Source: Candidatus Aenigmatarchaeota archaeon (lineage in GTDB: Archaea; Aenigmatarchaeota; Aenigmatarchaeia; Aenigmatarchaeales; Aenigmatarchaeaceae). Taken from it: a DNA stretch of 64,000 nucleotides. This document shows, piece after piece, positions 8,740 to 59,870 of the stretch; the first letter of the stretch is position 1; each line of letters begins with the position of its first letter. The position numbers and the translations under genes were made by a program. The stretch spans positions 119-64,118 of the forward strand of contig JAFGAZ010000020.1 in assembly GCA_016933455.1 (NCBI GenBank). The letters are read 5' to 3'. The notes beneath the pieces are model-generated. The model did not search any database and was not told the origin of the DNA. It saw only the letters and a list, made by a program, of their open reading frames with translations.

Positions 8740-8799
8740 AGTAACACTATCAGTTCTATGTAACCAAATCTTTAAATAAGGATATTAGCTTAGAAAAAT

Positions 8800-11700
8800 T
8801 CACTCGTTTTCAGGCTCTTCTAGCCTGTAGGAGAGCTCGTAAAGATTGGTTTTGTGGCTTTTTTTCCTGCCGAAAAGCTCCTTGAACATGCTAAGTTTGA
8901 TGTGTCCGGTTACTTCAAGCAATACAAAGAGTATGAGAATGACAATTAGAACTGCCACAAGGGAAACCTCAAAAACTGGGAAGTCATCTCCCCCAGGAGC
9001 CACAATTGCCTCCATCTCGCAAGCCTGGCTTTCTGCAGGTTTGTCAGATGTTGTGCCGCAAGAGTTCGAGTCTGTGCAGGTTCTTGTCTGTACGTCTGCT
9101 GCGCACTCGGACCAGTCAGTGCAAGACCACGACTCTATGCAAACAGGGGCCTCTGCCTGGCTTCCACTAACACCTATAACAAATGTTGAAAATCCGGGTG
9201 AAACCGCCTCGTATATGTACTCTGTTGAATCGTTGCTTACAATGGTAGTTGTCAGTTCGTTCCACAACGTTTCTTCCCATCTGTACATGCTAACTTCTGC
9301 AGCGTTTATGTTGTTTTGTTCAAGCCATGTTTTATTGACTGCGAATCTAATTACAGTTTGATTAATATCATCGTTGTCTATGTTCTCCTTATCTATGTTC
9401 ATATAATGGTAAACGTTTCCTTCGATTTCATGTGATACGGATGCAGGAGCTCCTGCAATCTTTGTGATCCTTATCTGAATGTCATTTGCTGCGTTCTTTA
9501 CTGTTATGCTTATTTTTCTGACAACCACATCCTCTGTTTTTGTTATGGAAACGTTGGTTGTCTGGCCCGCTGACATGGAGCCTATGGTGACATTGGCTTT
9601 TCCTTTTTCCCTGTCAACATCTATTACCTGCGGCAATGGTCCCGAGCCTCCTGTTGACACAAATGCAGCTGCGCTTCCAGCTGTTATTGTAAGAGTGGAG
9701 TTTATTCCGGTGGAGTTTGCCGTCCAGTTGTCTCCGCCTGTTGCATTTAGCGTGTAAATGTAGCTTCCGACCGAGAGAATAGCCGACTCGTTGGTTACAT
9801 TATCTAAAAGCGCACCGTCCCTGTAGAGTGTGTAGTTGACATCGCTATCACCCACATTGCTCTCCAAAACAGAAACCGTTGTCCTATTGCCTGTTACAAC
9901 AGAACTTGAAGGACTCATGTTAACGGTTAGGTTCAAAATTCCCTTGTTTACAAAAGCGTAATAGGTGATGTTTGTTGAGTTTGCAGAATAGTTCTGGTTG
10001 CCTGTGGCGTTTACTGCAAAGACATAAGTTCCGTTACCGAGCCTTATGATCTCGTTTTGCGGAGATGTGCCGTTTGATATTGGTGATGCGTTCCTGTAAA
10101 GGAACACTTCTCCGCCCGCAGAAACTGCAGTGGCGTTGATGACATCAGGATATGCGTAAGTGGTGTTGTTTGATGTGCCGTTGAGGTACAATGCTATCGG
10201 GTTTGAGGCCTGGGAAACATTCCACCAAAAGTCAACTAGGGAAGATTCTGTATAATTGTCATTGCCCAAGACCTTGGCGCTAAAGTTGTTGTCCCATGCA
10301 GGCCATGTGCTGCTGTTCCATGCGACTGTTGTGGCATTGGATATCAAAGTGCCGTTCCTCCAAAGCTGGACATACAGTCCTGAAACATTGGAAACTGCTG
10401 TTGCGTTTATTGTTGAATTAGGATAGGTCGAAGTCTGGTCTGCAGCTTCGCCATTTAGCAAAAGCGAAACCAAGGTTGCGCCCTTGTTGACTAAGGCATA
10501 ATATGTAACACCGGTTGTGTTTGCAGAATAGTTGGCGTTTCCGGTCGCGTTGACCTTGTATGCGTATGTGCCGTTGCCAAGAAGTATGTTTTCCTCAGCT
10601 GTCAAGGTTCCGTTTGTTACCTCGACATCGTTTCTGTATATGGAAACATTGCCGATTGTTGAAGTGGCATTGGCTTTTACTGCCTCTGGGTATGTGTAAG
10701 TTTTATTGCCGTTCAAAGTGTCATTAAGCAAAAGCTGTACAGGGTTGTTAGCCTGTGAAACAATTAGATAGTATGTTATTCCAGACGAGTTCGCAGAATA
10801 GTTGACGTTTCCGGTCGTGTTAACCTTGTATGCGTATGTGCCTGCACCCAAGTTGACGGTCTCGTTTGTGCCAAGGTATACTCCGTCACGGTATAGGAAG
10901 CATGAGCCCGATCCGGTATAGTCATTTGAACAGTTGACATAAACAGATGTCCCGTATGTTATCGAGACGTTCTGGTTGTCATATGCTGTGCTGTTGTTAA
11001 TTGTAAGGCTTACAGGGTTTGTTGCATTGGTAGTGACTATGAGGAATATGCTGCTGTTCGAGGCAGATGTCCAGTTGGCGTTGCCTGATGTGTTGTAAAC
11101 TACGTTGTAAACGCCTATTTCAAAGGCGCCTGATATTGTTGCTGGATTTCCGGACGAGTTTGTTCCTTTTGCAAACAAAGTAAATGTCGGCGGGGTTATT
11201 GTTGTTGTAGAGTTTCCCCTTATCTCAACGGAATTTGGAACTTGGACCGTCTTGTTCTGGCCGTCACTGTCTATGAAAACCTGGACATCGGGAGTTCCCT
11301 GAGCTATTACCAATGTGTTTGCGGTCGTGTTGGAAGAATAGTTGGTGTTTCCTGATGTGTTTAAAGTATAATTGTGAGCTCCTGCGCCGAGAATTGTTCC
11401 TGTAGCGTTCTCAGAGGAAGCGTCCAGGCCTTCCCTGTAAAGGCCGCATGTTATCTGCGAAGGGCATCCTGTTCCCGTTGTCATTGAAACGTCAGGATAA
11501 GTTCCAGACCACGAGATGTTGTTTGCAAGGCTTAGCATGACAGGGGCCTGAGTTATCATAACATAGTAAGTGCTTGAATTATCAGTATAGTTCTGTGAAA
11601 GTGTCGTGTTCACAATATATTCCCAAACACCTGCTCCGATGGTTACATCCGTAAGATTTTCAGATGTTACGTCGGTTCCGTTTCTAAATACCATGCAAGT

Positions 11701-31988: not shown

Positions 31989-32810
31989 ATGAATTATAAA
32001 CTATTGATTGCCGTCCCTTTAATTGTTTTGGCACTGTCAACAACTTATCTTTTGTGGAAGATGAGCACCGAGGGGCTAAGCCTAGACATCGACCTGAAAG
32101 GTGGAACGCAGATAATTGTTGAATCGGATACGCCTCTAAACGAGCAGTCAATAGAAGAGGTTCTTGACGAATATGATGTCAATGTAAGAATAGCGTCAGG
32201 TCTTACAGGGCATTCCGCATTCATAGAATTCGATGCCGAGATAGATTCTAATGATGTTCTGGAAACATTGGAAGGCGCAGGATACGAGTTCGAGGACTAT
32301 TCTGTTCAGACAGTAGGACCAAGCCTTGGAGCAGCATCAATGAACCAGGCAATCATAGTTCTAATAATAGCTTTCGCCTTCATGGCAACAACCATTCTTT
32401 TCATATTCAAGATACCGATTGTCAGCTTGTACGTCACTTTGTGCCCTGCATTCGACATAATAGGAACTCTTGCAATTTCACAACTACTTGGAATAAAACT
32501 TTCATTGGCTGGTTTTGCAGCGCTTCTCATGATAATAGGTTACTCTGTTGACGACGACGTCATGATAACAACAAGGGTGCTAAAAGGTGAGGGCAGCATA
32601 GACGAGAAGGTTAGGGGAAGTTACAAGACAAGCTTTACAACAACGGCGGCAACTCTTGTTGCCTTGGCAGCTTTATACGCAATGTCTTTGTCATCTGTTA
32701 TAACCCAGATAGCATCTATTCTGCTCATAGGTCTTATACTAGACCTTCAAAACACATGGCTCTTTGCAACGCCGTTGCTTAGGTGGCATGTTGAGAGGAA
32801 ATCAAAATGA
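31989..32810 (+). CDS. secF: protein-export membrane protein SecF
   Basis: 273 aa. LSLDIDLKGGTQIIV is followed by the SecDF-type 6-TM C-terminal region. It overlaps secD by 4 nt. Confidence 0.8.
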   Translation: MNYKLLIAVPLIVLALSTTYLLWKMSTEGLSLDIDLKGGTQIIVESDTPLNEQSIEEVLDEYDVNVRIASGLTGHSAFIEFDAEIDSNDVLETLEGAGYEFEDYSVQTVGPSLGAASMNQAIIVLIIAFAFMATTILFIFKIPIVSLYVTLCPAFDIIGTLAISQLLGIKLSLAGFAALLMIIGYSVDDDVMITTRVLKGEGSIDEKVRGSYKTSFTTTAATLVALAALYAMSLSSVITQIASILLIGLILDLQNTWLFATPLLRWHVERKSK

Positions 32811-38240: not shown

Positions 38241-40904
38241 TCAGTTGCCAAAATCAACTGTCTTTCCTATTGATCCGCTGTCAGAAAAATAAAGCGTGCC
38301 AGAGCATTTTGGACACTTGCCGGTCAACGACGGTCTTCTAAAGTTCCAGTCGCAGTTCTTGCAGGCAATAGTTTCATAGTTCTTCAGAACAATTTCATCA
38401 GGCGACGGCTCCTTTTTCTTCTTGCCGCTAAGAATGTCAAGAAGGTTCTGCTGCCTGACCCCCTCTATTAGTTCAGACGGTGTTATGTCGCAAACCTCAA
38501 ACACCCTTTCCAATGGAGGCAAAAGCTGGTTGTGGATATAATAGTCGGAATCTATCTGCAACCCCCTTTGCTTAACCCACTTGGGCTCCTCTGCTCTTTT
38601 TGAGAGCATCTGATTGCCCTTGATTATGACGTATTCTATCCTAGAACCTATCACAGAACGCGTCTTGTCTCTTTTCACTATCTTCTTTGCAAGCTCCACA
38701 TGGGGCTGCATGCCGTTGTACTCTTCGAACGGCTTTGTTATGCCCTTTGTTATGGACAGTCTCTCCAAAGGTATCTTGCCGTCAGCAAGGTCCTTTATTA
38801 TTCCCCTCACGAACTTTGTTGCCTTCTTCATGTCCTTTTCCTTGAGTATTATGTTGAGTGTCTCAAGCATTGTTTCTGAAACAAGCGTGCACCAGTCCCT
38901 TCTCACAGTCTCTATTCCCTTCATGTCTATTTTTCCCTTCCACTCGCCGGCAATCTGCTCGAATGCCCAACCCGCATATCTTTTCTTGGCTTCTATTAGG
39001 AATGTCTTGTAGGTCTTTTCGAATTTCAGGTCCAATCCGAAAAGCTGGTCAGAAATAAAATCAGATATCTCGCTGCCAAATCTCCTGGACTCGTCAAGCT
39101 CCTTTATGTCAGTTATCAAAAATACGGAATCTGTGTCCGCGTAGATGACCTTGGCCTTGTAATTTTTTTCTATAAGTTCTCTTGTCTTGATTATGGTATC
39201 CCTTCCCCAGGCAGTTATGGAATTGGCAATGTCCATTAGAAACAGCCTTGATCTTGCATAGCCCGTGTAACCATACAAAGAATTGACCAGAGTCTTAAGA
39301 GCCAACTGCTTGGCATCAAGTATTCTTCTCTTTTCCTTGTCGGTTTCTGTTTTCAGTATTTTCTTGACAGCTGCCCTGGATTTCAGATACTCGTCAACTA
39401 TGGAAGGAATAACTCCCCTTCTAACGTTTTCCTTGACGAACTTTGAACCGTAAGGGGACTCGTAATGATCTATCTTCTCGCTCTTATCTAGCATGAAGGT
39501 CGTTGTGCAAATGTTCAAGGCATTAATCATCGACGGGTACATGCTGGTAAAGTCAAGACATATGACCCATTCATGAAAACCCACTGTTGGCTCAAGAACT
39601 ATTGCGCCTTTAAGGGTCTGTCCTTCCAGGGAAACATTTCTTGGCTTGCATGGCATAACATACCCTCTGACAAAGAACTCGCGAAGAAGCTTGACCTCGT
39701 GCCTTTGCGACTGACCGCCTAGGCTGTCTTGCAGAAGAACGCCCGATATCTTTGATATTTCAAAGAACTTGTCCATAAGCCTTTTCTCAATGACAAGGCG
39801 CTTGACCAAAACAGCATCAACCCTTGCGTATTCTACGAACTTGTCAAGCCCAATTCCCCTATACCAGGCATCATGAATCTTCTCGAACATGTTGCCCTCA
39901 AGGTCTATCTTACTAACACCGAGCATTTTATCTGATATCGTGCTAAGGTCGTATCTCTTGAAACGAACCCACGGGTCTCTCTTGTATATTGCATAAGTGT
40001 CGACTATGGTCCTGCCTGAAACATAGGGTATGAAGCCGTTTTGTATTTTCCTGCAATATGCCTGCTTGTCTGTTCTTCCAATATCCTTTGACATGCCAAG
40101 CCTTGTCATTCTTTCAACTATGAATGGCAAATCGAAGCCGTTTATGTTGTGACCGCAAACAATGTCAGGGTCGTACTCATCCATTATCTCCTTGAACCTC
40201 TCAAGCATCGCCTTCTCATCATCACAAACAACAATGTTCTTGCCTTTGGCATACTTTGTCAGCAACACGAGGTCGTTTTTGCCTTTGTATGGCTCGGAAA
40301 AAGCAAAACTCATTACTATTATTGTGTCCTTGTCTGGTGTTGGAATTCTTTCCTCTTCTGGCAAACACTCTATGTCCAGGGCCATGTATTTTATGGGCAC
40401 ATTCTCCATCTTGTCTAATGGCTTTATGGACTTGGCATCAAACGCCGCGCACTTGACAGTGCTTGTCCTGATATAGTTGCCCTCAACTTCCATCCATCCC
40501 ATACCCTTGAGCCCGAAATCGGCCATGAACCTGTACTTGAACAAGACATCTGCTTCATATGGGGTGCCAAACATCCTCACATAATCTCTTATCTCAGGGG
40601 TCTTGGCAGGATTTGTGCCTGTTATCTTGAGAATCTTCGAAGGAGGCTGGTATCCCATGGGTATTATTTTCTCAACAACCTCCATTTGAAGGTCCGGATA
40701 CTTTTTCAGTATCTTCTTTTTTATTTCATCATAGTTGCCTTCCTTGGAATGCAGATAGAAATACGGCATAAAGTCGTTATAGAAAACGCATATGGATTTT
40801 CCTTCCTTTGTCTTGCCAAAAATCCTAACAACAGGCTTCTTGTTGTTTAAAAGAATGTAATCGCAATCAAGAATCTGGACTTCCATAGTGTCCTTATTAG
40901 TCAT
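38241..40904 (-). CDS. polB: family B DNA polymerase with a C-terminal C4 zinc ribbon
   Basis: 887 aa with exonuclease motif LDIECL, polymerase motifs SMYPS and VIYADTDSVF, and KKRYAG. A roughly 70-aa C-terminal extension ends with CKNC-x12-CPKC (codons at 38304-38363). Confidence 0.92.
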   Translation of the reverse strand: MTNKDTMEVQILDCDYILLNNKKPVVRIFGKTKEGKSICVFYNDFMPYFYLHSKEGNYDEIKKKILKKYPDLQMEVVEKIIPMGYQPPSKILKITGTNPAKTPEIRDYVRMFGTPYEADVLFKYRFMADFGLKGMGWMEVEGNYIRTSTVKCAAFDAKSIKPLDKMENVPIKYMALDIECLPEEERIPTPDKDTIIVMSFAFSEPYKGKNDLVLLTKYAKGKNIVVCDDEKAMLERFKEIMDEYDPDIVCGHNINGFDLPFIVERMTRLGMSKDIGRTDKQAYCRKIQNGFIPYVSGRTIVDTYAIYKRDPWVRFKRYDLSTISDKMLGVSKIDLEGNMFEKIHDAWYRGIGLDKFVEYARVDAVLVKRLVIEKRLMDKFFEISKISGVLLQDSLGGQSQRHEVKLLREFFVRGYVMPCKPRNVSLEGQTLKGAIVLEPTVGFHEWVICLDFTSMYPSMINALNICTTTFMLDKSEKIDHYESPYGSKFVKENVRRGVIPSIVDEYLKSRAAVKKILKTETDKEKRRILDAKQLALKTLVNSLYGYTGYARSRLFLMDIANSITAWGRDTIIKTRELIEKNYKAKVIYADTDSVFLITDIKELDESRRFGSEISDFISDQLFGLDLKFEKTYKTFLIEAKKRYAGWAFEQIAGEWKGKIDMKGIETVRRDWCTLVSETMLETLNIILKEKDMKKATKFVRGIIKDLADGKIPLERLSITKGITKPFEEYNGMQPHVELAKKIVKRDKTRSVIGSRIEYVIIKGNQMLSKRAEEPKWVKQRGLQIDSDYYIHNQLLPPLERVFEVCDITPSELIEGVRQQNLLDILSGKKKKEPSPDEIVLKNYETIACKNCDWNFRRPSLTGKCPKCSGTLYFSDSGSIGKTVDFGN

Positions 40905-41083: not shown

Positions 41084-41989
41084 TCATGGCTTCTGTTCTA
41101 TTTTCTCGATTTTCCTTGTCATAAGGTCTATTATGCTATTTTTCGGCACTATGCTAACCCCTTTGTAGCTCATGCTAATTTCTTGGTCTGTAAATATCAC
41201 ATCTGGAATTGGGTCTATTAGAAAATCTATCCTGTTGATGTTTAGATATCTTTTGTTAAGGATGTCTATAGGCTTGGCTCCTGTCAAGAACATGATGTTT
41301 ATGTTGCCTATGCTAAACATGTAGGGGCTTGAGACCTTGTGCTTTGACTGTTTTTTGTTGTCAAAAACACAGTCCTTTGAAACAACATAATCAACGTCAA
41401 GCTTCTTGTCCGAGAACGCCACCTTTATAGGTTTTTTGCTAAGATTGACAGGCCTAAGAGGAATTGATGGAAACAGCACCTTTTCAGCAAAAACAACTTT
41501 GTTCTTTGCCTGCCCGAAAACCGCTATAACATCATCCAAAACAAGCCTTTCAATCATCTTGCTGTCCATAACAACGTCTATATACCCTGTCGGGTCTTCC
41601 ATAACAACAGTCTTGCCGGAATTTTTTGCAACAATGTCCTTTACCATGCCTATAACACTGACCGGCCCTTGGCTTACCTTGTTTATGGATACTATGTTTT
41701 TTAGCTCGACTTTTTTCATCAAAAGGTCCTGCAAAAACCCATAGCGCTTGTTTAGGGCATTGACATAGTCCTGAACAGTGAAGACCTTCTTTTCTTCAAA
41801 CTGCTTTATTATCTCTATATCCTCTGCTAGAATCTTGTCTACGATGCTGCCAGTAACTATGAACGGTTTTTCCTGCTTTAGATGCTTGATTAGTTTGTCA
41901 AATGCCTTTTCATCTATTTTTTCTATAGACTCCTTGGCATCCTCTTCAACAAGAAAACCCTGCTTTATGAGCTCTTCTAAATGGTTCAT
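41084..41989 (-). CDS. truncated, probably catalytically inactive DNA polymerase small-subunit (DP1 / B-subunit)-like protein
   Basis: 301 aa. An N-terminal helical region is followed by an OB-fold-like core (PVSVIGMVKDIV...VVMEDPTGYIDVVM...VIAVFGQAK). Remnants of phosphoesterase blocks follow (KVAFSDKK, MFSIGNINIMFLTG, FLIDPIPDVIFTD) without the metal-binding His/Asp residues. The assignment is from memory of DP1 motifs, not from a search. Confidence 0.5.
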   Translation of the reverse strand: MNHLEELIKQGFLVEEDAKESIEKIDEKAFDKLIKHLKQEKPFIVTGSIVDKILAEDIEIIKQFEEKKVFTVQDYVNALNKRYGFLQDLLMKKVELKNIVSINKVSQGPVSVIGMVKDIVAKNSGKTVVMEDPTGYIDVVMDSKMIERLVLDDVIAVFGQAKNKVVFAEKVLFPSIPLRPVNLSKKPIKVAFSDKKLDVDYVVSKDCVFDNKKQSKHKVSSPYMFSIGNINIMFLTGAKPIDILNKRYLNINRIDFLIDPIPDVIFTDQEISMSYKGVSIVPKNSIIDLMTRKIEKIEQKP

Positions 41990-43182
41990 AAGAATATTTC
42001 TTCCAAAAGATTCTTTAATTTATTGTAGACTGTATCAGATAGGTTAAGTGATATTACCCTTGTTCTGCCGTATCTGCCCTTTGAGACTATCTTTGTGCTT
42101 ATCACGCTTGACAAATCAAGTTCCGAGATAAGGTCAGACACTCTTCTGGTTGTTAGGGTCTTTATTCCTTGCTGCTTACATATCTCCTGATACTTGTCAA
42201 AAACCTCGCCGGTTTGTATCTCCTTTGTCTTTTCAGCCAAAAACACTATAGAGTACAAGACTATTTGGCTCTGCTTTGGCATTGACTTTACTGTTTCAAC
42301 AACTCTGTCAACGTCTATTTTCTCCTCAGCATCATCAACATGTTCTATAGATACCTTTTCATGAGAGTTTCTCTCGGATAGCTCTCCTGCTACTCTGAGC
42401 AAATCTAGGGCTCGCCTGGCATCCCCGTGTTCTTGGGCAGCCAAAGCAGCGCATTTCTCAATAACACCAGGCTGAAGAACATCTTGTGTAAAAGCTATAG
42501 ATGCCCTGTTCTTGAGAATGTCCTGGAGCTGCAGGGCATTGTAAGGCGGGAATATCAACTCCTCCTCACTAAGGGAGCTCTTAACCCTTGGATCCAAAGT
42601 CTCTATGAAGCCCAAGTTATTGGTTATGCCTATTATGGAAAGCTTGGAATTGTTAAGGTCTTGGTTTATCCTTGTAAGGTTATATAGAATCTCATCACCC
42701 GTCTTTTGAACCAAAGTGTCGATTTCGTCGACAATAAGTATTATGGTCTGCTTCCTACTGTCGAGTGCGTCGAAAAATGCATTATACACCTGGTCAGTGG
42801 GAAGGCCTGTGAAAGGCACCTCTTTTCCCAGCGCCTTGGATAACTCTGCCAATAATCTATACTCTGTATCAGCAATTTTCTTCATTTTGCAGTTAACATA
42901 CATGACTTTGACGCTTTGACCGTTCTCACCGCTTATCTTTTCAAGCTCAGAACCCACAAACCTTGATACAAGCGTCTTGCCTGTGCCAGGCCTGCCGTAA
43001 AGGAATATGTTGCTTGGCCTGCCGCCCTTGAGTGCAGGTGCCAGTATCCTTCCCAGGTCATTGACTTGCTTTTCCCTATGAGGTATTGTCTCCGGCTTGA
43101 ATGAAATAGTCAAAGCATCTCTATTGGAAAATATGGGTTTGGATGCCAAGAATTTTGTGAATATGTTGTTGGTATCTGTCAT
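41986..43182 (-). CDS. cdc6: Orc1/Cdc6 replication initiator
   Basis: 398 aa with Walker A YGRPGTGKT, Walker B IVDEID, HGDARRALDLLR and a C-terminal winged helix. It overlaps the downstream DP1-like gene by 4 nt. Confidence 0.9.
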   Translation of the reverse strand: MTDTNNIFTKFLASKPIFSNRDALTISFKPETIPHREKQVNDLGRILAPALKGGRPSNIFLYGRPGTGKTLVSRFVGSELEKISGENGQSVKVMYVNCKMKKIADTEYRLLAELSKALGKEVPFTGLPTDQVYNAFFDALDSRKQTIILIVDEIDTLVQKTGDEILYNLTRINQDLNNSKLSIIGITNNLGFIETLDPRVKSSLSEEELIFPPYNALQLQDILKNRASIAFTQDVLQPGVIEKCAALAAQEHGDARRALDLLRVAGELSERNSHEKVSIEHVDDAEEKIDVDRVVETVKSMPKQSQIVLYSIVFLAEKTKEIQTGEVFDKYQEICKQQGIKTLTTRRVSDLISELDLSSVISTKIVSKGRYGRTRVISLNLSDTVYNKLKNLLEEIFL

Positions 43183-43531
43183 TGTATCACATATGAATAT
43201 CGTCGAACCTTTGTTTCTCTTGAAGATATCTAGATTAACATATATAAAAATTACTTCACGTTAACCCCCTTGTTTCCTTAGGAAAATGTTCATGTGAAGG
43301 TTTTGTTACATGAATTTTGATGTTTTTCCTTCATATGAAATAACCACCCTATGACTTCCACTCAAAATCCAAATGAAACAAAGGTTGCGAGATAAAATTC
43401 TTCTTTTTTCAGATATTATTAATCTATAAAATATACCTTTATTTCATATAACATTGTTATATAATAATATAATATAATACATTTCTATCTATAAAGTCAT
43501 GTTCGACTAGTAATGAGGGGGTGGGCCCTAA
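43183..43531. other. candidate replication origin (oriC-like intergenic region)
   Basis: 349 nt of non-coding sequence immediately upstream of orc1/cdc6. Four dyads of the type TTCAYRTGAA occur at 43254, 43289, 43306 and 43330. An AT-rich stretch of about 95 nt spans 43404-43497. A G-rich element GAGGGGGTGGGCCC follows. Confidence 0.5.
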
Positions 43532-50871: not shown

Positions 50872-51591
50872 ATGATCAAAACAAAAAAAGAGATAAAAAG
50901 TTTGATAAAATCTGCAAAGATAACTGATTCCTGTATTAGGGTTATAGAAAAATCACTTGAAGAAAATATAACTGAAATTGAACTGAGAAGAAGAATAGGA
51001 AGAAACATAAGAAAACAAGGGGCTTCACTTTCTTTCAATACATTAGTTGCTACGGGAAAAAGGTCCGCCATGATACACTGCGACCCAAGAGCCACAAAAA
51101 GATTGATTTCCGGTATAGGGTATGTTGATTTTGGCGCTAGATACAAAGGCTACTGTACAGACATAACAGTGCCGTTCATCAAAGGAAATATAACCAAGAA
51201 GCAGAAGAGAATAGTTGACACGGAACTTGCAGCATACAAGCTTGCCATAAATTCCTTAAAATTAAACCAGCATTGTTGGAAGCTTTTTGATAAAGTGGAC
51301 AAATACCTGAGGAAAAAAGGTTATAGTTTGGATCATGGTCTTGGTCATGGTACGGGAAAGAAGATACATGAGCAGCCGTTCATAGTAATACCTAAAAAAG
51401 AAAAGTTGAAAAGAAAGAAAAAGAGAAATTGGGATGTCATAAAGAAACTAAGATTCCAAGAAGGCATGTTCTTTTCAATAGAGCCAGGCGTTTATGTGAA
51501 AGGTGTTGGCGGCTGCAGGCTTGAGAATGATGTTTTGATGACAAGAAAAGGCCCGAAAGTAATAACACATTCAAGATTGTTGATAGTTTAG
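50872..51591 (+). CDS. M24-family peptidase (Xaa-Pro/methionine aminopeptidase fold, catalytic domain only)
   Basis: The track starts at TTG 50866. I prefer ATG 50872. Pita-bread metal ligand blocks are present: DFGARYKGYCTDIT, HGLGHGTG, FSIEPGVY and RLEND. Confidence 0.75.
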   Translation: MIKTKKEIKSLIKSAKITDSCIRVIEKSLEENITEIELRRRIGRNIRKQGASLSFNTLVATGKRSAMIHCDPRATKRLISGIGYVDFGARYKGYCTDITVPFIKGNITKKQKRIVDTELAAYKLAINSLKLNQHCWKLFDKVDKYLRKKGYSLDHGLGHGTGKKIHEQPFIVIPKKEKLKRKKKRNWDVIKKLRFQEGMFFSIEPGVYVKGVGGCRLENDVLMTRKGPKVITHSRLLIV

Positions 51592-52277
51592 ACGCCCCGT
51601 ATTTCGCATTTCTCAAAATAAGGTTTCATTAATTTTTGGAAGCTTTCAAGCTCTTCCTTGGTAAAGGATTTCTTGTTCTCAAAAGTTTTGTCAAACGTCT
51701 TTATTCCCCTGAAATTTTGGATAAAAAATTTCTTAGAACCCTTTAACCACTCACTGATTTTTCTAGCATCCTCCTTTGTGAAAATACCCGGTACTGCAGT
51801 TGTCCTGAACTCGTGCTCTGGAAAATTTTTGATAACATTCACACTTTCCAATATCTTGTCCTTGTCAACTTTAACACATGATGCAATATCATAGGAATCA
51901 ATGGGCGCCTTGATGTCCATTGCAATATAGTCTATAAGATTTTTTTCTACCAAACTTTTTATCATGTCAGGATTGCTTCCGTTTGTATCAAGTTTGACAT
52001 CAAACCCAAGTTCTTTTATCTTGTAAATGAATTCAGGTAGGTCCTTGTTTATTGTGGGCTCGCCGCCTGTTATACACACACCGTCCAAAAACCCCTTTCT
52101 TTCCTCTAGAAATTTCAAGATTTCTTCTTGTTGTATTTCAGGTCTTCCATCTTCTGTTAAAAGTTCTGGATTATGGCAGTAGCCGCACCTAAAGTTGCAG
52201 CCGAAAAGAAAAATGGTGCAGGCAAGCTTGCCTGGATAATCCAATACAGTTTGCTTCTCAAGACCCTTAATTATCAT
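51588..52277 (-). CDS. nrdG: anaerobic ribonucleotide reductase activating protein (radical SAM)
   Basis: The track ORF extends to 52349, inside nrdD. I prefer the start MIIKGLEK at 52277, which overlaps the nrdD stop as ATGA. The cluster motif is FGCNFRCGYCHN. Confidence 0.85.
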   Translation of the reverse strand: MIIKGLEKQTVLDYPGKLACTIFLFGCNFRCGYCHNPELLTEDGRPEIQQEEILKFLEERKGFLDGVCITGGEPTINKDLPEFIYKIKELGFDVKLDTNGSNPDMIKSLVEKNLIDYIAMDIKAPIDSYDIASCVKVDKDKILESVNVIKNFPEHEFRTTAVPGIFTKEDARKISEWLKGSKKFFIQNFRGIKTFDKTFENKKSFTKEELESFQKLMKPYFEKCEIRGV

Positions 52278-54349
52278 GCCAATCTCTTGATCATGGGTGC
52301 CTTGTATGTTACCCTTTGCCTGTATTCTTCTGACTTGCCCTGGTTCCATGTATTAATCGGACGTATGTATCCGACAACCCTGGAATATACCTGCGTTCTT
52401 GCATGGCATGTCGGGCACTTGGGTCTTTCTCCTCTGATGTAGCCGTGCACAGGACAAACAGAGAACGTGGGCGTTATGGTAAAGTATGGTACTGCAAAGC
52501 CTGATGCGATCTTCTTTACCAGCTGCCTTACCTCTTCTCCGCCGTTTGGCGATTCCCCAAGGAAGGTGTGGAACACTGTCCCTCCCGTATACTTTCTTTG
52601 CAGTCCCTCTTGGTGCGTCAGTGCCTCGAAAACATCTGCAGTGTGGTCAACTGGCAATTGCGTTGAGTTGGTATAGTACGGAACCCTTTCGCCGTATGTC
52701 TTGATTCCAGGCATTTGCTTTTTGTCAATTCTTGCCAGCCTAAACGATGTCCCCTCTCCTGGCGTGGCTTCCAGATTGTAAATGTGGCCTGTTTCTTCCT
52801 GGTATTCTGCTATCTTCTTTCTCATAAATTCAAGGACCTTTAATGAAAAGTCCTTGCCGTCAGGTGTTGCTATGCCCTGACCCAGGAAATTAAGGCACGA
52901 CTCGTTCATGCCTATAAGCCCTATTGTGGAAAAGTGGTGGTCCAAGTTGCCAAGGTACCTCTTGGAATACGGTAGCATGCCCATTCCCATCATCCTCTCA
53001 ACAACCTTTCTTTTCAGCTCCAAAGAGTTCTTGGCAAGATACATCAGTCTGTCAAGCTTTTCAAAGTACTGCGACTCCTCCCTTGAGGTATAGCCGATTC
53101 TTGGCATGTTTATTGTAACAACTCCAAGGCTGCCTGTGGATTCGCCAAAACCGAAAAGGCCCCCTGTCTTGTGCCTAAGGTCCCTTAGGTCAAGCTGCAG
53201 CCTGCAGCACATTGCCCTAACGTCAGTGGGCTTGAGATCGCTCTTGATAAAGTTTTGGAAATATGGCAGCCCGTACTTTGCAGTCATCTTAAACAAGGAA
53301 TCGAGGTTCTCGTTGTTCCAGTCCAGATCCTTTGTGATATTGTAAGTCGGTATGGGCCATGTGAACACCTGTCCTGTCTGGTCCCCCTTTGTCATGACTT
53401 CTATAAAGGCCTTGTTTATGACATCCATTTCCTTTTGATAGTCGGCATAAGTGTCGTTTGTCACCTTGCCCCCTATGATTACAGGATTGTCTTTCAGATC
53501 CTCAGGCACTGTCCAGTCAAGCGTTATGTTCGAGAAAGGCGTCTGCCCTCCCCATCTCGATGTCACGTTCATGCCGTAGATGTACTCTTGCATGCACTGC
53601 TTTACCTGGTCATATGAAAGATTGTCCGCCCGAACAAAGGGTGCAAGATAAGTATCGAATGAGGAAAACGCCTGCGCTCCTGCCCACTCGTTTTGCAGAA
53701 CACCGATAAAGTTAACCATCTGGGCAACAGCCGATCTTAGGTGCTTTGCCGGGGCGCAGTGTACCTTTCCCGGCACTCCGTTAAAGCCTTCCATTAATAG
53801 CTGCCTTAGGCTCCAGCCTGCGCAGTAGCCGCAAAGGCTCATTGAAAGATTATGCAAGTGGAAATCCCCGTTGCTATGAGCTGTTGTTATCTCCTTTGGA
53901 TAGACGTTGTTTAGAGCATAGTATGCAATCACAGTTCCTATGCCGTGCCACATAAGGCCTGAATATGAAAAACCTATATTGGCATTCTCCTTTATCCTCC
54001 ACTCGTTCTCGGAAATGTAGTTGTCAATAACATCGCTAACATCCAAAAGAACGCCCTTGACATCCCTTAGTTTCTTGTGCTCTTCCCTGTAGAGTATGAA
54101 AGCCTTTGAAGTCCTATAATGGCCCCCCTCTACAAGCACCTTTTCAACAGCGTCCTGCACATCCTCGACTGTTGGGAACTTTTCAGTGAACTTTTCCTCA
54201 AGAATTTCGCAAACATTCTCGGCAAGCTCCTTTGACATCTCCTGGTTCGTGCCTCCCACTGCCTGGGCAGCTTTCCATATGGCGTTTGCAACCTTTTCCT
54301 TTTCAAAAGGAACTACCATGCCGTTTCTTTTCCTAACCAATTTAACCAT
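52274..54349 (-). CDS. nrdD: class III anaerobic ribonucleoside-triphosphate reductase
   Basis: 691 aa. There is an N-terminal ATP-cone (VRKRNGMVVPFEKEKV). The C-terminal Zn site is CPVHGY...CPTCH, and the glycyl-radical motif is SRVVGYIRP. Confidence 0.9.
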   Translation of the reverse strand: MVKLVRKRNGMVVPFEKEKVANAIWKAAQAVGGTNQEMSKELAENVCEILEEKFTEKFPTVEDVQDAVEKVLVEGGHYRTSKAFILYREEHKKLRDVKGVLLDVSDVIDNYISENEWRIKENANIGFSYSGLMWHGIGTVIAYYALNNVYPKEITTAHSNGDFHLHNLSMSLCGYCAGWSLRQLLMEGFNGVPGKVHCAPAKHLRSAVAQMVNFIGVLQNEWAGAQAFSSFDTYLAPFVRADNLSYDQVKQCMQEYIYGMNVTSRWGGQTPFSNITLDWTVPEDLKDNPVIIGGKVTNDTYADYQKEMDVINKAFIEVMTKGDQTGQVFTWPIPTYNITKDLDWNNENLDSLFKMTAKYGLPYFQNFIKSDLKPTDVRAMCCRLQLDLRDLRHKTGGLFGFGESTGSLGVVTINMPRIGYTSREESQYFEKLDRLMYLAKNSLELKRKVVERMMGMGMLPYSKRYLGNLDHHFSTIGLIGMNESCLNFLGQGIATPDGKDFSLKVLEFMRKKIAEYQEETGHIYNLEATPGEGTSFRLARIDKKQMPGIKTYGERVPYYTNSTQLPVDHTADVFEALTHQEGLQRKYTGGTVFHTFLGESPNGGEEVRQLVKKIASGFAVPYFTITPTFSVCPVHGYIRGERPKCPTCHARTQVYSRVVGYIRPINTWNQGKSEEYRQRVTYKAPMIKRLA

Positions 54350-54355
54350 TAAAAA

Positions 54356-54790
54356 TCACCTCAATGCTTTTTTGAAAGTCTTGACGTCCTTGAAATCCTT
54401 GAAATGCGACATGAATCTCACGTATGCGACCTTGTCTAGCTTCTTTAGCTTCTCTGTCACAATGTCGCCTATTATCTGGCTTTTTACCTGCATGCAGTTC
54501 ATGCCCTTTATTTCCATCTCGATTTCCTGGAGCAGCTTTTCTATCTTTTTTTCGTTCACTGGCCTTCCTTTGAGGGCTTGCACAATGCCGTTTTTTATCT
54601 TGTCTCGGTTGAAGTTTTCCCTGCTCTTGTTGCGTTTTATCACAATCAGGGGCGTTTTGACGATTTCGTATGTTGTGAAGCGGTTCTTGCACTCCAAACA
54701 CTCCCTTCTGCGCCTGATTGCCCCGTTCTCTCCAGTATCCCTCTTGTCTACTACCATTGATTTGGATGAACTGCAGTAAGGACAAAACAT
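54356..54790 (-). CDS. nrdR: NrdR transcriptional repressor (zinc ribbon plus ATP-cone)
   Basis: I prefer the start MFCPYCSS at 54790. The zinc ribbon is CPYC...CLEC within VVDKRDTGENGAIRRRRECLECKNRFTTYE. An ATP-cone follows. Confidence 0.85.
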   Translation of the reverse strand: MFCPYCSSSKSMVVDKRDTGENGAIRRRRECLECKNRFTTYEIVKTPLIVIKRNKSRENFNRDKIKNGIVQALKGRPVNEKKIEKLLQEIEMEIKGMNCMQVKSQIIGDIVTEKLKKLDKVAYVRFMSHFKDFKDVKTFKKALR

Positions 54791-54798
54791 ATGAAAAA

Positions 54799-54814
54799 CC
54801 ACAACATCTTGTGT
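54799..54814. promoter_or_regulatory. NrdR-box-like 16-mer CCACAACATCTTGTGT
   Basis: The palindrome CACAA-N4-TTGTG lies 9 nt upstream of the nrdR start. It matches 13 of 16 positions of the bacterial NrdR-box consensus as I recall it (ACACAATATATTGTGT). Confidence 0.5.
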
Positions 54815-55716: not shown

Positions 55717-56061
55717 ATGGACATTCTAAAGATATCCATAGCTGTTTCCATAATAGGAATAGTTTCCCTGTTCTTCCTAACCAGGATATTCGAGGAGGAA
55801 ATAACAGACATAACGGATTTGAAAATAGGCCAGATAGAGAAGATATCGGGAATGGTGACGTCTGTTTATGTTAGCAGGGATAGCCATGTCTTCATCAAAG
55901 TTGCTGACAGAACAGGAGAAATAACAGTTGTTGCCTTCAAGAATTCTAATATAGACAAGGCATACGATCTCGAAGTCGGGGAAGAGATATCTGTTCTAGG
56001 AAGAGTTGATGAATATGAGGGGGATATAGAAATAATAGCTAGCGAGATTGAGACTCTTTGA
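55717..56061 (+). CDS. membrane-anchored OB-fold protein
   Basis: 114 aa. An N-terminal TM segment (ISIAVSIIGIVSLFFL) is followed by an OB-fold pattern like nucleic-acid-binding tRNA_anti domains (ISGMVTSVYVSRDSHVFIKVADRTGEITVVAF...ISVLGRVDEYEG). Confidence 0.6.
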   Translation: MDILKISIAVSIIGIVSLFFLTRIFEEEITDITDLKIGQIEKISGMVTSVYVSRDSHVFIKVADRTGEITVVAFKNSNIDKAYDLEVGEEISVLGRVDEYEGDIEIIASEIETL

Positions 56062-56362: not shown

Positions 56363-56653
56363 TTAACTTCCTCTTATCCTTTTCTTAACTTGGATGTATT
56401 TTAGTACATCCTCGACTGTAGTATTTTCCTTTCCAGGCTTTAGGCCAATTAGCCTCAGCCTTATGCCGAATTGGTCGATTGACCTGGAGTTTACAAAGAA
56501 ATCAAGGTAGTTGTTTACTATGTTTGATACTATGAACGGATTAAGGTCTAAGGCCTTTGAAATGCCTCTAATATGCAGTTCTCCGTTCTCTTTGAGCAGA
56601 TCTAAAATTTTGGCTATGTTCAAAACAGTTTTTCTATGAATTCCTTGACCCAA
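56363..56653 (-). CDS. small winged-helix DNA-binding protein
   Basis: 96 aa with a wHTH-like pattern (ILDLLKENGELHIRGISKALDLNPFIVSNIVNNYL). Its start faces the palindrome array. Confidence 0.55.
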   Translation of the reverse strand: MGQGIHRKTVLNIAKILDLLKENGELHIRGISKALDLNPFIVSNIVNNYLDFFVNSRSIDQFGIRLRLIGLKPGKENTTVEDVLKYIQVKKRIRGS

Positions 56654-57227
56654 TTATAACACCTGTTATATATACTGGTTTGGCATGCATATAAGCTTGT
56701 TCCCGAGCTATTATTAAGTCAAATGTCGTAAAAATAATATAAACTATACGTTAAAAGACGTAAAAATAGCTTCACGTGAATGTTCATATCTTCTTCATTT
56801 TTGATATCATTTCAATCACACATAATTCACACATTTGACACACAATTACAACCAAGATTTTTTCAGCTAAAAAATCTTCACGTGAATAATATATATAATG
56901 TGTAACATACCTACTATTTCACGTTATCTTCACATATGAACACGTGAACTTCACATGAATATTACGTGAATTGACGTGAACGATATGAACATTTTGTGAA
57001 CATCATATGAACTTCACATAATCTTCACGCGGGAAAACTCACAAACCTAAAAATGACATGAAGAGGACAAAAAATTCACGTGAAATTGAATGAAATTTAT
57101 CACCTTCACGTCGTGAATAAAAAATCAAGAAAAACCTTCATTTTATCTTCACAAAATCTTCATTTATGAACTTCATGTTCACGTGAAACTCAGTAAAATT
57201 TAAATACCTAATTCACGTGAATATTAT
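56654..57227. repeat. 574-nt non-coding array of TTCACGTGAA palindromes and half-sites
   Basis: Perfect 10-mers occur at 56771, 56877, 57075, 57178 and 57212. Degenerate copies include 56918, 56928, 56938, 56950, 56962, 56971, 57013, 57024 and 57105. By my count there are about 13 TTCAC and 10 GTGAA half-sites. Confidence 0.85.
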
Positions 57228-58322
57228 ATGAACATCATGAATGATAATTTTTCAAAGTGGGGCTGGACAGAAAACCCGTTTGTTCTTAGAATTGATCCTA
57301 GCCTGTTTGTCGGCTATGAAAACCAAGTCAAAGCAGCCCTAAATCATATAGAAAACAAGCACAAGATAGCCCTGATAACAGGAAGAACAGGTGCTGGCAA
57401 GACCACTTTCCTCAAATGGGTTGAAAAGAACTATGATGCATCAAAGTTCTACGTTTCCAAGCCTCCTCAGAAGCCTGAGGAGTTTGTCTCACTTTTCACA
57501 GAGCTTTTCGGAACAAGCTTTTTTGAGCGCCTTTTGGGCCAAAAACCGACCTTATACAGCCTTCCAAAATACGTGAACAAGAAGCTTGGAAATCGACACT
57601 TGGTATTTCTTTTGGACGAAATCCACGAGACTAACAAGGAAGTTCTGGAATGGCTAAGGGTCCTAATAGATCAGATAGACAACATAAGCCTTGTCATAGC
57701 CGGCATGCCTGTTGTTGACGAGAAGCTGTCAGAACTTCAGACCCTAAACCAGAGAATAACAACCAGGATAAACCTTGTTTCCCTGGACAAAAGTGAGACC
57801 AAGGAGCTCATAAAGAAGAGAATTGAGAGTGTTGGCGGCAAGGGCATTGCGCCCTTTACAGACGATACCATAAGCACGATATACGAGAAGACGGGGGGCT
57901 TTCCAAGGGAGATTCTAAAGCTGTGCGACAGGCTTGTCAACTCGGCCCTTGAAAAGGGACTGGACGTCATAACCCTAAAGGACATTGAGGAGCACAAGGA
58001 AATCGAGCTGCCAAAAGTGAGAGTTGAGGAGCCAAAGGTCACTTTTATGCCAAAACCCCCTTCTGACGAGCAGATAAGGAACCTGCCTTTCAAGCAAAGA
58101 AAGATCCTGAAATTGCTTTCAGAAAAGGACTGGCTTACCCCGACAACCATAGTCGAGGAGATGGACACTGGCTCCTACAAGTCAAAGGGCCATGCCATAA
58201 GGTCTGTGAACAATATCCTAAGAAGGCTGATGCTGGACGGCTATGTTCAAAGAGAAAGCCGGGGAAAAGCGTTCATGTACGCCCTGACCCCGAAAGTTAG
58301 GACAATGTTTGTTGAAAACTAG
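57228..58322 (+). CDS. AAA+ ATPase (ExeA/ORC-like AAA_22 type) fused to a C-terminal winged helix
   Basis: 364 aa. The N-terminus reads WTENPFVLRIDPSLFVGYE. Walker A is TGRTGAGKTT and Walker B is LLDEIHE, followed by GGFPREILKLCDRL. The C-terminal wHTH is KILKLLSEKDWLTPTTIVEEM...GYVQRESRGKAFMYALTPK. Confidence 0.75.
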   Translation: MNIMNDNFSKWGWTENPFVLRIDPSLFVGYENQVKAALNHIENKHKIALITGRTGAGKTTFLKWVEKNYDASKFYVSKPPQKPEEFVSLFTELFGTSFFERLLGQKPTLYSLPKYVNKKLGNRHLVFLLDEIHETNKEVLEWLRVLIDQIDNISLVIAGMPVVDEKLSELQTLNQRITTRINLVSLDKSETKELIKKRIESVGGKGIAPFTDDTISTIYEKTGGFPREILKLCDRLVNSALEKGLDVITLKDIEEHKEIELPKVRVEEPKVTFMPKPPSDEQIRNLPFKQRKILKLLSEKDWLTPTTIVEEMDTGSYKSKGHAIRSVNNILRRLMLDGYVQRESRGKAFMYALTPKVRTMFVEN

Positions 58323-59600: not shown

Positions 59601-59870
59601 GTGATATTTGTGCGCGATAAACTAAGGGCCAAGGAAATGGTCGGCAAGGTAATTGTTTCTGAAGACACGGGCAGAAAGTTCGGTGTCGTGGGCGATGTCA
59701 ATTTTATTACAGAATCCGGAGAGCTAATGAACATTATTGTTTCTGAGCCAACAAGGCAGGCTTTGGATTTGAAATTGGCGGAAGACGACAAGGGCAGGAT
59801 GCTCATCCCATTTTCTGCAGTGAGATCTGTTGGTGACTTTATCATTGTTGCAGAAAAAGACATTGTCTGA
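59601..59870 (+). CDS. PRC-barrel domain protein
   Basis: 89 aa with a GTG start (ATG 59637 is an alternative). It shows the PRC-barrel pattern KEMVGKVIVSEDTGRKFGVVGDVNF...LIPFSAVRSVGDFIIV. Confidence 0.65.
   Translation: MIFVRDKLRAKEMVGKVIVSEDTGRKFGVVGDVNFITESGELMNIIVSEPTRQALDLKLAEDDKGRMLIPFSAVRSVGDFIIVAEKDIV

Follow-up and report, generated by a model that had tools for sequence, protein, structure and literature searches.

A helically phased half-site array enclosing the promoter of an Orc1-shaped AAA+ ATPase in Aenigmatarchaeota: a candidate assembly and self-control site near the orc1-adjacent origin

The 64 kb stretch of DNA analysed here, referred to as the window, comes from a genome of Candidatus Aenigmatarchaeota, a member of the DPANN archaea. 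Towards its right end a gap of 574 nt (56654-57227) separates a leftward open reading frame (ORF) of 96 amino acids (aa) from a rightward ORF of 364 aa, which encodes an AAA+ ATPase carrying a C-terminal winged helix-turn-helix (wHTH) domain and is called here the AAA+/wHTH gene. The gap contains an array of short, dyad-related sites (Table 1). The original prediction considered it the longest non-coding stretch of the window, and proposed that it was a second replication origin or a binding array for one of the flanking wHTH proteins. The first point holds, as two longer gaps in the greedy ORF set are filled by real genes (51588-52349 and 31989-32810). Scans of the window against Rfam and for tRNA genes gave no matches, on which grounds a reading of the gap as an RNA gene or CRISPR-like element was dropped.

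Five perfect copies of the palindrome TTCACGTGAA are present, as first reported, all of them in the gap and with no other copy in the window. Shuffled sequences give a mean of 0.09 copies and none of 100 shuffles reached five. The heptamer CACGTGA is enriched approximately 800-fold in the gap. Selection acts on a 5-bp half-site, TTCAC or GTGAA, which occurs 23 times in the gap against 0.89 expected from the rate in the rest of the window; any other 574-nt segment of the 64 kb holds at most five. A further 12 weak half-sites (TTCAT or ATGAA) are placed in register with the strong ones. The earlier count of at least ten degenerate copies is correct if half-sites are meant, but as 10-mers there are just five more with no more than two mismatches. 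The first codons of the AAA+/wHTH gene (57228-57242, ATGAACATCATGAAT) hold two ATGAA pentamers that resemble half-sites, 9 nt apart, and many orthologues likewise have ATGAA at or close to the start codon; judged by this resemblance, the array may extend into the start of the coding sequence.

Table 1. Positions of features at the array, in the flanking genes and at the orc1-adjacent gap
Feature	Position	Strand	Remarks
Half-site array	56771-57221		23 strong and 12 weak half-sites, 5 perfect palindromes; ~450 bp
Perfect palindrome TTCACGTGAA, copy 1	56771-56780		
Perfect palindrome, copy 2	56877-56886		
Densest run	56918-57028		15 half-sites, spacing 9-11 bp; TTCAC-oriented at both ends, RTGAA-oriented inside
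Perfect palindrome, copy 3	57075-57084		
Promoter-proximal run	57137-57187		TTCAT 57137, TTCAC 57148 and TTCAT 57159 in 11-bp steps; then ATGAA 57166, TTCAT 57172 and palindrome copy 4
Perfect palindrome, copy 4	57178-57187		Directly upstream of TATA box
TATA-like box TTTAAATA	57199-57206	+	~22-29 nt before ATG; palindrome copies 4 and 5 on either side
Perfect palindrome, copy 5	57212-57221		Between TATA box and start codon
364-aa AAA_22 (ExeA/MuB/TnsC-like) AAA+ ATPase	57228-58322	+	AAA+, lid, ~20-aa disordered linker, C-terminal winged helix
Walker A, GRTGAGKTT	57381-57407	+	
Walker B, DEIHE	57615-57629	+	
wHTH of 364-aa protein	~58065-58301	+	Recognition helix HAIRSVNNIL
96-aa ORF	56363-56653	-	Divergent, weakly HTH-like; gene conserved, adjacency to array not
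Palindrome ATAACACCTGTTAT	56656-56669		Distal edge of array gap; sole other copy in window is in orc1 origin
Orc1/Cdc6 gene (bona fide)	41986-43182	-	NF001625 521.6 bits (cut-off 501); TIGR02928 430.6 bits (cut-off 181.3)
oriC-like gap adjoining orc1	43183-43531		Origin recognition box (ORB)-like dyads, G-string, AT core
ORB-like dyads	43255, 43289, 43330		That at 43255 is TTCACGTTAACCCCC, abutting a C-run
AT core	43380-43500		83% AT
Palindrome ATAACATTGTTAT	43448-43460		Inside AT core of orc1 origin
Opposed G-string GAGGGGGTGGG	near 43516		

A search covering a single genome for each GTDB species identified 115 stretches that encode a relative of the AAA+/wHTH protein, and the best 80, sharing 41-88% sequence identity with the query, were analysed. 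For 76 species loci with sufficient upstream sequence the 700 nt preceding the gene were examined, and in 71 of these half-sites are enriched at least 3-fold, the threshold applied, at protein identities down to 41%. The median number of half-sites is 23 against a background of 1.3 where the proteins share at least 50% identity, and 12 against 2.1 where identity is lower. The peak of half-site density is restricted to positions -600 to 0 of the gene and is seen nowhere else within 6 kb on either side. The commonest 8-mers in the arrays are CACGTGAA, ACGTGAA followed by G, T or C, and GAACTTCA. Chance or low-complexity repetition is ruled out by the shuffles together with this conservation, and the sequence data support a genuine, selected, high-occupancy protein-binding array.

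The half-sites follow an 11-bp lattice, TTCACGTGAAC, in which TTCAC stands at 0, GTGAA at 5 and the next TTCAC at 11. Distances compiled over the window and the 80 related loci show a main peak for same-orientation pairs at 11 bp (350 pairs), then peaks at 21-22, 31-32, 41-42, 52 and 62-63 bp; pairs of opposite orientation peak at 5, 16, 26-27 and 37 bp, and also at 6, 17 and 28 bp. These peaks correspond to a long-range period of approximately 10.5 bp, one turn of B-DNA, which keeps the half-sites on the same side of the helix over six turns or more. Within the window by itself, the sites reach a phase coherence of 0.617 at 10.5 bp, compared to 0.012 ± 0.056 (maximum 0.228) for randomly placed sites. 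Maps of the loci reveal runs of direct half-sites that converge onto full palindromes. Outside the palindromes, sites in the gene-facing TTCAC orientation outnumber those in the GTGAA orientation in most 50-nt bins, typically by 1.5- to 3-fold.

The promoter of the AAA+/wHTH gene is embedded in the array. The last dyad ends at 57221, a short distance before the start codon at 57228, as had been described, and a TATA-like box lies between this dyad and the one before it. The order dyad, TATA box, dyad, ATG recurs in relatives. A TATA-like hexamer occurs at -65 to -18 in 51 of 79 loci; among these 51 a strong half-site is found within 35 nt upstream of the TATA box in 45, and between TATA box and start in 38. 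The layout is that of an operator, with candidate sites flanking the TATA box in a conserved order. Recruitment of archaeal RNA polymerase is blocked when a protein occupies the DNA immediately downstream of the TATA box, and the interval between TATA box and start codon, where palindrome copy 5 is placed, is a position used by archaeal repressors. The geometry therefore predicts autorepression.

The 364-aa protein is 100% identical to one from an Aenigmarchaeota metagenome-assembled genome at NCBI, and its Walker A and Walker B motifs read as originally given. A match to Pfam AAA_22 (PF13401) at 52.9 bits, compared to a cut-off of 27, places the protein in that family. TIGR03015, the ExeA-like ATPase associated with XrtA/PEP-CTERM, is matched over its full length by residues 11-255, though at 98 bits this is below the equivalog cut-off of 324.5; the sequence comparison indicates that the protein is related to this group in its AAA module and is not a member. 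In an alignment of 57 sequences the Walker A residues G52-K58, the Walker B residues D130-E134 (DExHE), R176, R180 and R227, the arginine of a GGFPRE motif, are invariant. The C-terminal winged helix of the original prediction is borne out by weak Pfam matches (Penicillinase_R and DUF6293_C) and by an AlphaFold2 (AF2) model in which it comprises a helix-turn-helix and a β-hairpin. The model has a predicted local distance difference test (pLDDT) score of 83.6. Its AAA+ base carries three helices between strands 2 and 3 and is followed by a lid, then by a linker that is disordered (residues 257-275), and last by the winged helix.

The top full-length Foldseek matches in the PDB (E ~1e-12 over 380-400 columns) are archaeal Orc1/Cdc6 proteins on origin DNA and eukaryotic ORC and Cdc6; the archaeal matches include 2qby chains A and B, 1w5t, 2v1u and 1fnn, with ApeORC2, ApeORC1 and Pyrobaculum Cdc6 among them. 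RuvB, plant NLRs, TnsC and MuB follow at only two to three orders of magnitude weaker. Superposition of the AAA+ core alone is best on TnsC (7plh, TM score 0.67) and MuB (TM score 0.65), with root mean square deviations of 3.8-5.2 Å, and in a profile search of the PDB MuB (8xvb, E = 8e-5) is the sole match below E = 0.001. MuB and TnsC form ATP-dependent helical filaments on DNA. Against the orc1/cdc6 model TIGR02928 the protein scores 18.1 bits, where the cut-off is 181.3 and the Orc1 of the window is far above it (Table 1); the weak match does run end to end, over residues 45-343, with E = 9.5e-4. Alignment to an Orc1 profile with hhalign gives 30% probability and covers the AAA core alone (residues 24-203). 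A Pfam scan of the protein returned no Cdc6_lid or Cdc6 winged-helix match; Orc1 homologues carry PF22703 and PF09079. The comparison with Orc1/Cdc6 proposed at the outset was therefore borne out at the level of the three-domain fold but not at that of Orc1/Cdc6 hidden Markov model cut-offs or profile homology. According to the model, the protein is of Orc1/Cdc6 three-domain shape; by sequence it belongs with AAA_22 and ExeA-MuB-TnsC. This indicates that an Orc1/Cdc6-like shape has arisen, or diverged past recognition, in a second DNA-reading AAA+ family.

Which protein reads the array? The flanking AAA+/wHTH protein is the most likely candidate, because the array tracks its gene across the phylum, encloses its promoter and changes in motif with its recognition helix. 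The recognition-helix segment, HA(I/V)RSVNNIL, is nearly invariant. In a clade of 16 loci carrying the substitution H322N the CG core of the site is lost; the median number of TTCACG is 3.5 as opposed to 14, and of palindromes none as opposed to three. This covariation fits a winged helix that reads the site, and represents a single evolutionary event. The earlier suggestion that a flanking wHTH protein binds the array would on this evidence hold for the AAA+/wHTH protein but not for the product of the 96-aa gene, which is not a conserved partner of the array.

The second element to consider is the gap adjoining a bona fide orc1/cdc6 gene (Table 1), the composition of which is typical of a canonical archaeal origin and indicates that it is probably the real chromosomal origin. 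The related dyads that had been pointed out at 43.2-43.4 kb do exist, but they are ORB-type elements of this orc1 origin, as in related DPANN loci, and not copies of the array motif. Array and orc1 gap are 13.2 kb apart in the window, ~10.8 kb in the L001 genome, ~12.2 kb in L012, ~12 kb in L010, ~13.7 kb on the 740-kb contig Ga0366824_1000001, where orc1 is at 358.6 kb and the array at 344.4 kb, and ~4.6 kb in L042. The separation is thus 4.6-13.7 kb in all six genomes measured, and in all six the orc1 and AAA+/wHTH genes are divergently transcribed, away from each other. Equal lengths of the longest contigs in the match tables of the two genes suggest that they share contigs of 32-93 kb in approximately ten lineages, which was confirmed directly for those measured. 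Together the AAA+/wHTH gene and its array make up a conserved module of the chromosome, and their synteny with radA and rpa is fixed.

What would such an array be for? We propose that it is the cis-acting site at which the downstream AAA+/wHTH ATPase assembles and controls its own synthesis, and consider the core of this proposal, namely binding, filament formation and autorepression, to be about evenly poised between right and wrong. The proposal is made because of the confinement of the motif, its conservation and phasing, the embedded promoter, the fold and the linkage to orc1; from these we infer the identity of the array-binding protein, an ATP-dependent filament, repression and a cellular role. 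The C-terminal winged helix would read the 5-bp half-site TTCAC, and assembly would be nucleated at full palindromes, in which TTCAC meets GTGAA and a head-to-head pair of subunits would be bound. From there the ATP-bound AAA+ domains, connected to their winged helices through the flexible linker of ~20 residues, would extend the polymer one subunit at a time over half-sites spaced by a helical turn, with contacts through R176 and R227 of GGFPRE. The product would be a one-faced, probably DNA-bending nucleoprotein filament of at least 20 protomers. As the TATA box is located between two dyads, filling of the array would silence the AAA+ promoter and create a cooperative autoregulatory switch. 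Finally, the single, very high-occupancy complex 5-14 kb from the orc1 origin would provide an origin-proximal landmark, not an origin. The presence of 20-38 sites at a single locus in a fixed origin-proximal position suggests a role beyond autoregulation, and we favour segregation or organisation of the origin region, or control of initiation, over initiation itself.

Several points weigh against this proposal. Assignment of the reader draws on adjacency and on the covariation in one clade. In MuB and TnsC it is the AAA+ channel that binds the DNA, with no winged helix involved. Simple autoregulation needs one to three sites, so that repression alone does not explain 20-38, and no motor or partner protein for segregation was identified in the conserved neighbourhood. 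Embedding of the promoter is not an absolute rule; in L012 and L013 a free-standing LAGLIDADG homing-endonuclease ORF (252 aa; 5242-6000 in L012) lies between the array, at -1040 to -777, and the AAA+/wHTH gene, 760 bp away. Four of the most divergent orthologues (L074, L077, L079 and L080) have upstream gaps of ~90 nt with no array, and distant relatives that combine AAA_22 with a winged helix, from Jingweiarchaeum and Lokiarchaeia, have array-free gaps of 150 nt. The protein can therefore exist without an array.

One of the contigs just mentioned, L013 (JBHIEE010000119.1), is labelled as a metagenome-assembled genome of a Candidatus Aminicenantia bacterium. Its locus is that of L012, the protein and the sequence upstream being identical, which indicates that the contig is probably mis-binned.

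An AAA+ ATPase that binds DNA on a template of phased sites, those in its own promoter among them, is already known as a general principle. DnaA is likewise an AAA+ ATPase with a C-terminal DNA-binding domain, and its sites too occur in its own promoter, where it is autoregulated. In Escherichia coli oriC, arrays of low-affinity DnaA boxes with an 11-bp period and opposed orientations guide progressive growth of the oligomer. The differences are the winged helix in place of the domain IV helix-turn-helix and the archaeal setting alongside Orc1; neither an unwinding element nor a trio-like motif was found. With MuB, TnsC and TniB the protein shares the closest AAA+ core, by PDB profile for MuB and by superposition for TnsC and MuB. 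Those proteins, however, bind DNA non-specifically via the AAA+ channel, have no sequence-reading winged helix, are transposon-encoded and work with a transposase; the array locus has no transposase. Sulfolobus Orc1-2 is an Orc-shaped AAA+/winged-helix protein that acts as a transcription factor instead of an initiator, and the protein described here is predicted to be a similarly Orc-shaped, sequence-specific regulator, its gene beside radA and rpa. Orc1-2 differs in being a true Orc1/Cdc6 paralogue with sites scattered over promoters, as opposed to one massive array. No half-sites were found at the radA or rpa promoters.

Full-text literature searches returned no description of this protein family or array. 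What appears to be new is the family, the grammar of the motif, the conservation seen over the Aenigmatarchaeota loci studied and the location beside an archaeal origin. The module is a sharply defined pair, a 364-aa protein and a 450-bp DNA element, beside a replication origin. If it forms a centromere-like or initiation-control complex, its mechanistic class, with an AAA+ ATPase at its base, would be new. Should it be no more than an autoregulatory switch, it would still offer an unusually clear natural case of an AAA+ filament assembling on a sequence template, and a good subject for structural work.

A wider reading, which we hold as a tentative possibility, is that the locus belongs to an unrecognised chromosome-maintenance system. 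An Orc1-shaped but unrelated AAA+/wHTH protein would polymerise on a phased array by oriC, either as a centromere or origin-organising complex of a new class or as a second, Orc-independent initiator-origin pair. To our knowledge, chromosome organisation, segregation and timing are largely unknown in DPANN and in archaea generally.

One specific version of the landmark role, in which the array is a centromere-like partition or origin-organising site, we judge rather unlikely. The AAA+/wHTH protein would wrap the phased array in the manner of ParR on parC or TubR on tubC, and the complex would be captured by segregation or condensation machinery. At parC of R1 the parMR promoter lies between two groups of 11-bp repeats, five in each. 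TubR, which acts at tubC of pBtoxis, is a winged-helix protein, and cooperative coating by ParR or TubR produces both a superhelical scaffold and autorepression. The Aenigmatarchaeota locus shares with these systems helically phased iterons around the promoter of an adjacent nucleoside triphosphatase gene or operon. It is also a unique locus, has a conserved origin-proximal position and holds many more sites than regulation requires. In 70 of the 80 loci, moreover, a gene for an 89-aa PRC-barrel protein (59601-59870; 99% identical in L001) is a neighbour, always between the AAA+/wHTH gene and radA; PRC-barrel proteins are a class linked to archaeal cell division, to which we presume this one may be related. 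On the other side, no ParA, ParM or TubZ-type motor is encoded in the conserved neighbourhood, and no ParA or ParB is among the annotated neighbours. We know of no partition role for AAA_22 ATPases. ATPase and predicted DNA reader are here one AAA+ polypeptide, with no actin, tubulin or ParA motor, and the module is chromosomal and phylum-wide where parC and tubC are plasmid-borne. The proposed role is reached by analogy with those systems.

The palindrome also invites comparison with parS. TTCACGTGAA is the central 10 bp of the bacterial consensus, and literature matches for the string all concern ParB and parS. The 16-bp consensus TGTTTCACGTGAAACA is matched in those central 10 bp alone, however, the base after GTGAA being mostly C, G or T and not A. 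Because the flanking bases differ the match is treated as coincidence, which it probably is.

The possibility of a second chromosomal origin is more doubtful still, and less likely than an origin-proximal assembly and self-control site. The AAA+/wHTH protein would be a non-canonical, Orc1-shaped initiator that oligomerises on phased sites, as DnaA does at oriC and Rep proteins on iterons, melts DNA and loads MCM. The best full-length structural matches and the weak end-to-end match to TIGR02928 are consistent with such a protein. Like orc1, the gene stands beside its own array of repeats, and the phased, opposed sites recall arrays of DnaA boxes; as at iteron origins, phased repeats adjoin the gene of their presumed binder. 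The dyad outlines are similar, TTCac-gtGAA in the array and TTCCAnnnGAAA in ORBs, and the protein has the AAA+ base, lid and C-terminal winged helix of Orc1/Cdc6. The setting would also suit an origin; positions 38241-62549 of the window form a replication and repair island that, by Pfam and NCBIfam matches, encodes PolB (38241-40904), an OB-fold protein, Orc1, an HTH_3 protein, a DnaG-like Toprim protein, RadA and RPA.

A second palindrome, ATAACAnTGTTAT, is common to the array gap and to orc1-adjacent origin regions. The window has exactly two copies of the pattern ATAACA-N1-2-TGTTAT, where 0.05 would be expected, at 43448-43460 and 56656-56669. Among relatives it is found at -470 to -620 from the AAA+/wHTH gene in L001, L006, L014, L017-L019 and L023, and 120-300 nt upstream of orc1 in L042, L085, L086 and L110. 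The shared sequence suggests that a common factor links the edge of the array with oriC, the 96-aa HTH protein being a candidate binder.

Set against a second origin is the canonical orc1-adjacent origin at the short distances given above in six of six genomes, which would make another redundant because the two would be so close in genomes of ~1 Mb. The protein falls below all Orc1/Cdc6 cut-offs, lacks a Cdc6 winged-helix match and belongs to an AAA_22/ExeA-like family. The sites, too, differ from ORBs, being 5-bp half-sites, 20-38 per locus, in 10.5-bp phase and free of G-strings. Very AT-rich spacers do occur at some loci, for example 12% GC over 313 nt in L027, but the motif-free spacers are not consistently AT-rich; their GC content, on average close to that of the arrays, spans 12-56% among loci, with values of 52-56% in L019 and L075. 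With neither G-strings nor a consistently AT-rich spacer the array does not have the make-up of an ORB origin. Flanking genes mostly point towards the array, with only 38% of the neighbouring coding sequence facing away from it, compared to 65% around orc1-upstream regions, and the proximal part of the array is occupied by the promoter of the AAA+/wHTH gene. At the scale of the window GC skew follows gene orientation and leaves no mark at the array. Skew at four-fold degenerate sites is null around the array (57-58 loci, 13-21 kb each) and equally null at the positive control upstream of orc1 (21 loci), so that this comparison has no power for or against an origin.

Capture of such an origin from an extrachromosomal element, as had been envisaged, finds no support, as no relative of the AAA+/wHTH gene was detected among 2.9 million viral contigs and the module is a core chromosomal one with radA/rpa synteny. 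Of 33 viral contigs with a match to the motif, 32 have no more than seven half-sites in any 600 nt. The exception is L122, an IMG/VR phage contig of 111,855 bp, in which a gap at 8690-8940 is crowded with TTCACGTGAA, TTTCACA and GTGAA repeats, with 23 half-sites in 600 nt, and adjoins a gene with weak similarity to DUF6291. This array is unrelated to that of Aenigmatarchaeota, and L122 may have an iteron origin of its own, a phage origin whose core motif is similar but independent. A mobile-element origin of the AAA+/wHTH gene or array was rejected on these grounds.

Least probable of all, and in our view very unlikely, is that another protein reads the array, be it the 96-aa HTH protein, Orc1/Cdc6 titrated by a bank of sites resembling mini-ORBs, or an unlinked regulator, with the AAA+/wHTH gene merely a regulated target. 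The ORBs of DPANN orc1 origins resemble TTCACGTGAA in outline, and the orc1 gap of the window has dyads of the TTCAYRTGAA type. The genome of L042, however, has the two motifs as separate elements, canonical ORBs with G-strings (TTCCACCTGAAA followed by GGGG) adjoining orc1 and, at a distance of 4.6 kb, an array with 37 TTCAC half-sites. The regions upstream of orc1 in 28 DPANN metagenome loci have canonical ORBs and just 0-2 TTCAC half-sites. Orc1 is thereby made an unlikely reader. The shift of motif that follows a change in the recognition helix likewise points to the AAA+/wHTH protein. The 96-aa ORF was predicted to be a divergent wHTH gene; it is indeed a real, conserved gene and diverges from the array in the closest relatives, but its product is only weakly HTH-like (Pfam E ~0.015) and the AF2 model computed from the single sequence is poor (pLDDT 49.5). 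It is present in 18 of the 80 loci, at variable distance and orientation. Synteny led to its rejection as a partner of the array, since most loci that retain the array either lack the ORF or have it elsewhere.

Further genes of the island are presumably nrdD, with a radical-SAM activase, and nrdR; relatives of nrdD are up to 86% identical. We take the ORF at 54356-54802 to encode NrdR, with its zinc ribbon and ATP-cone, unusual for an archaeon. A 114-aa OB-fold protein of the tRNA_anti-codon type (55717-56061) is the upstream neighbour in 38 of the 80 loci, and has a hydrophobic N-terminal segment that, to judge from its composition, may be a membrane anchor. In distant loci the perfect copies of TTCACGTGAA found outside arrays are, by reading of the sequence, in the coding region of this OB-fold protein, where they correspond to the His-Val codons CAC GTG of a conserved SHV motif.

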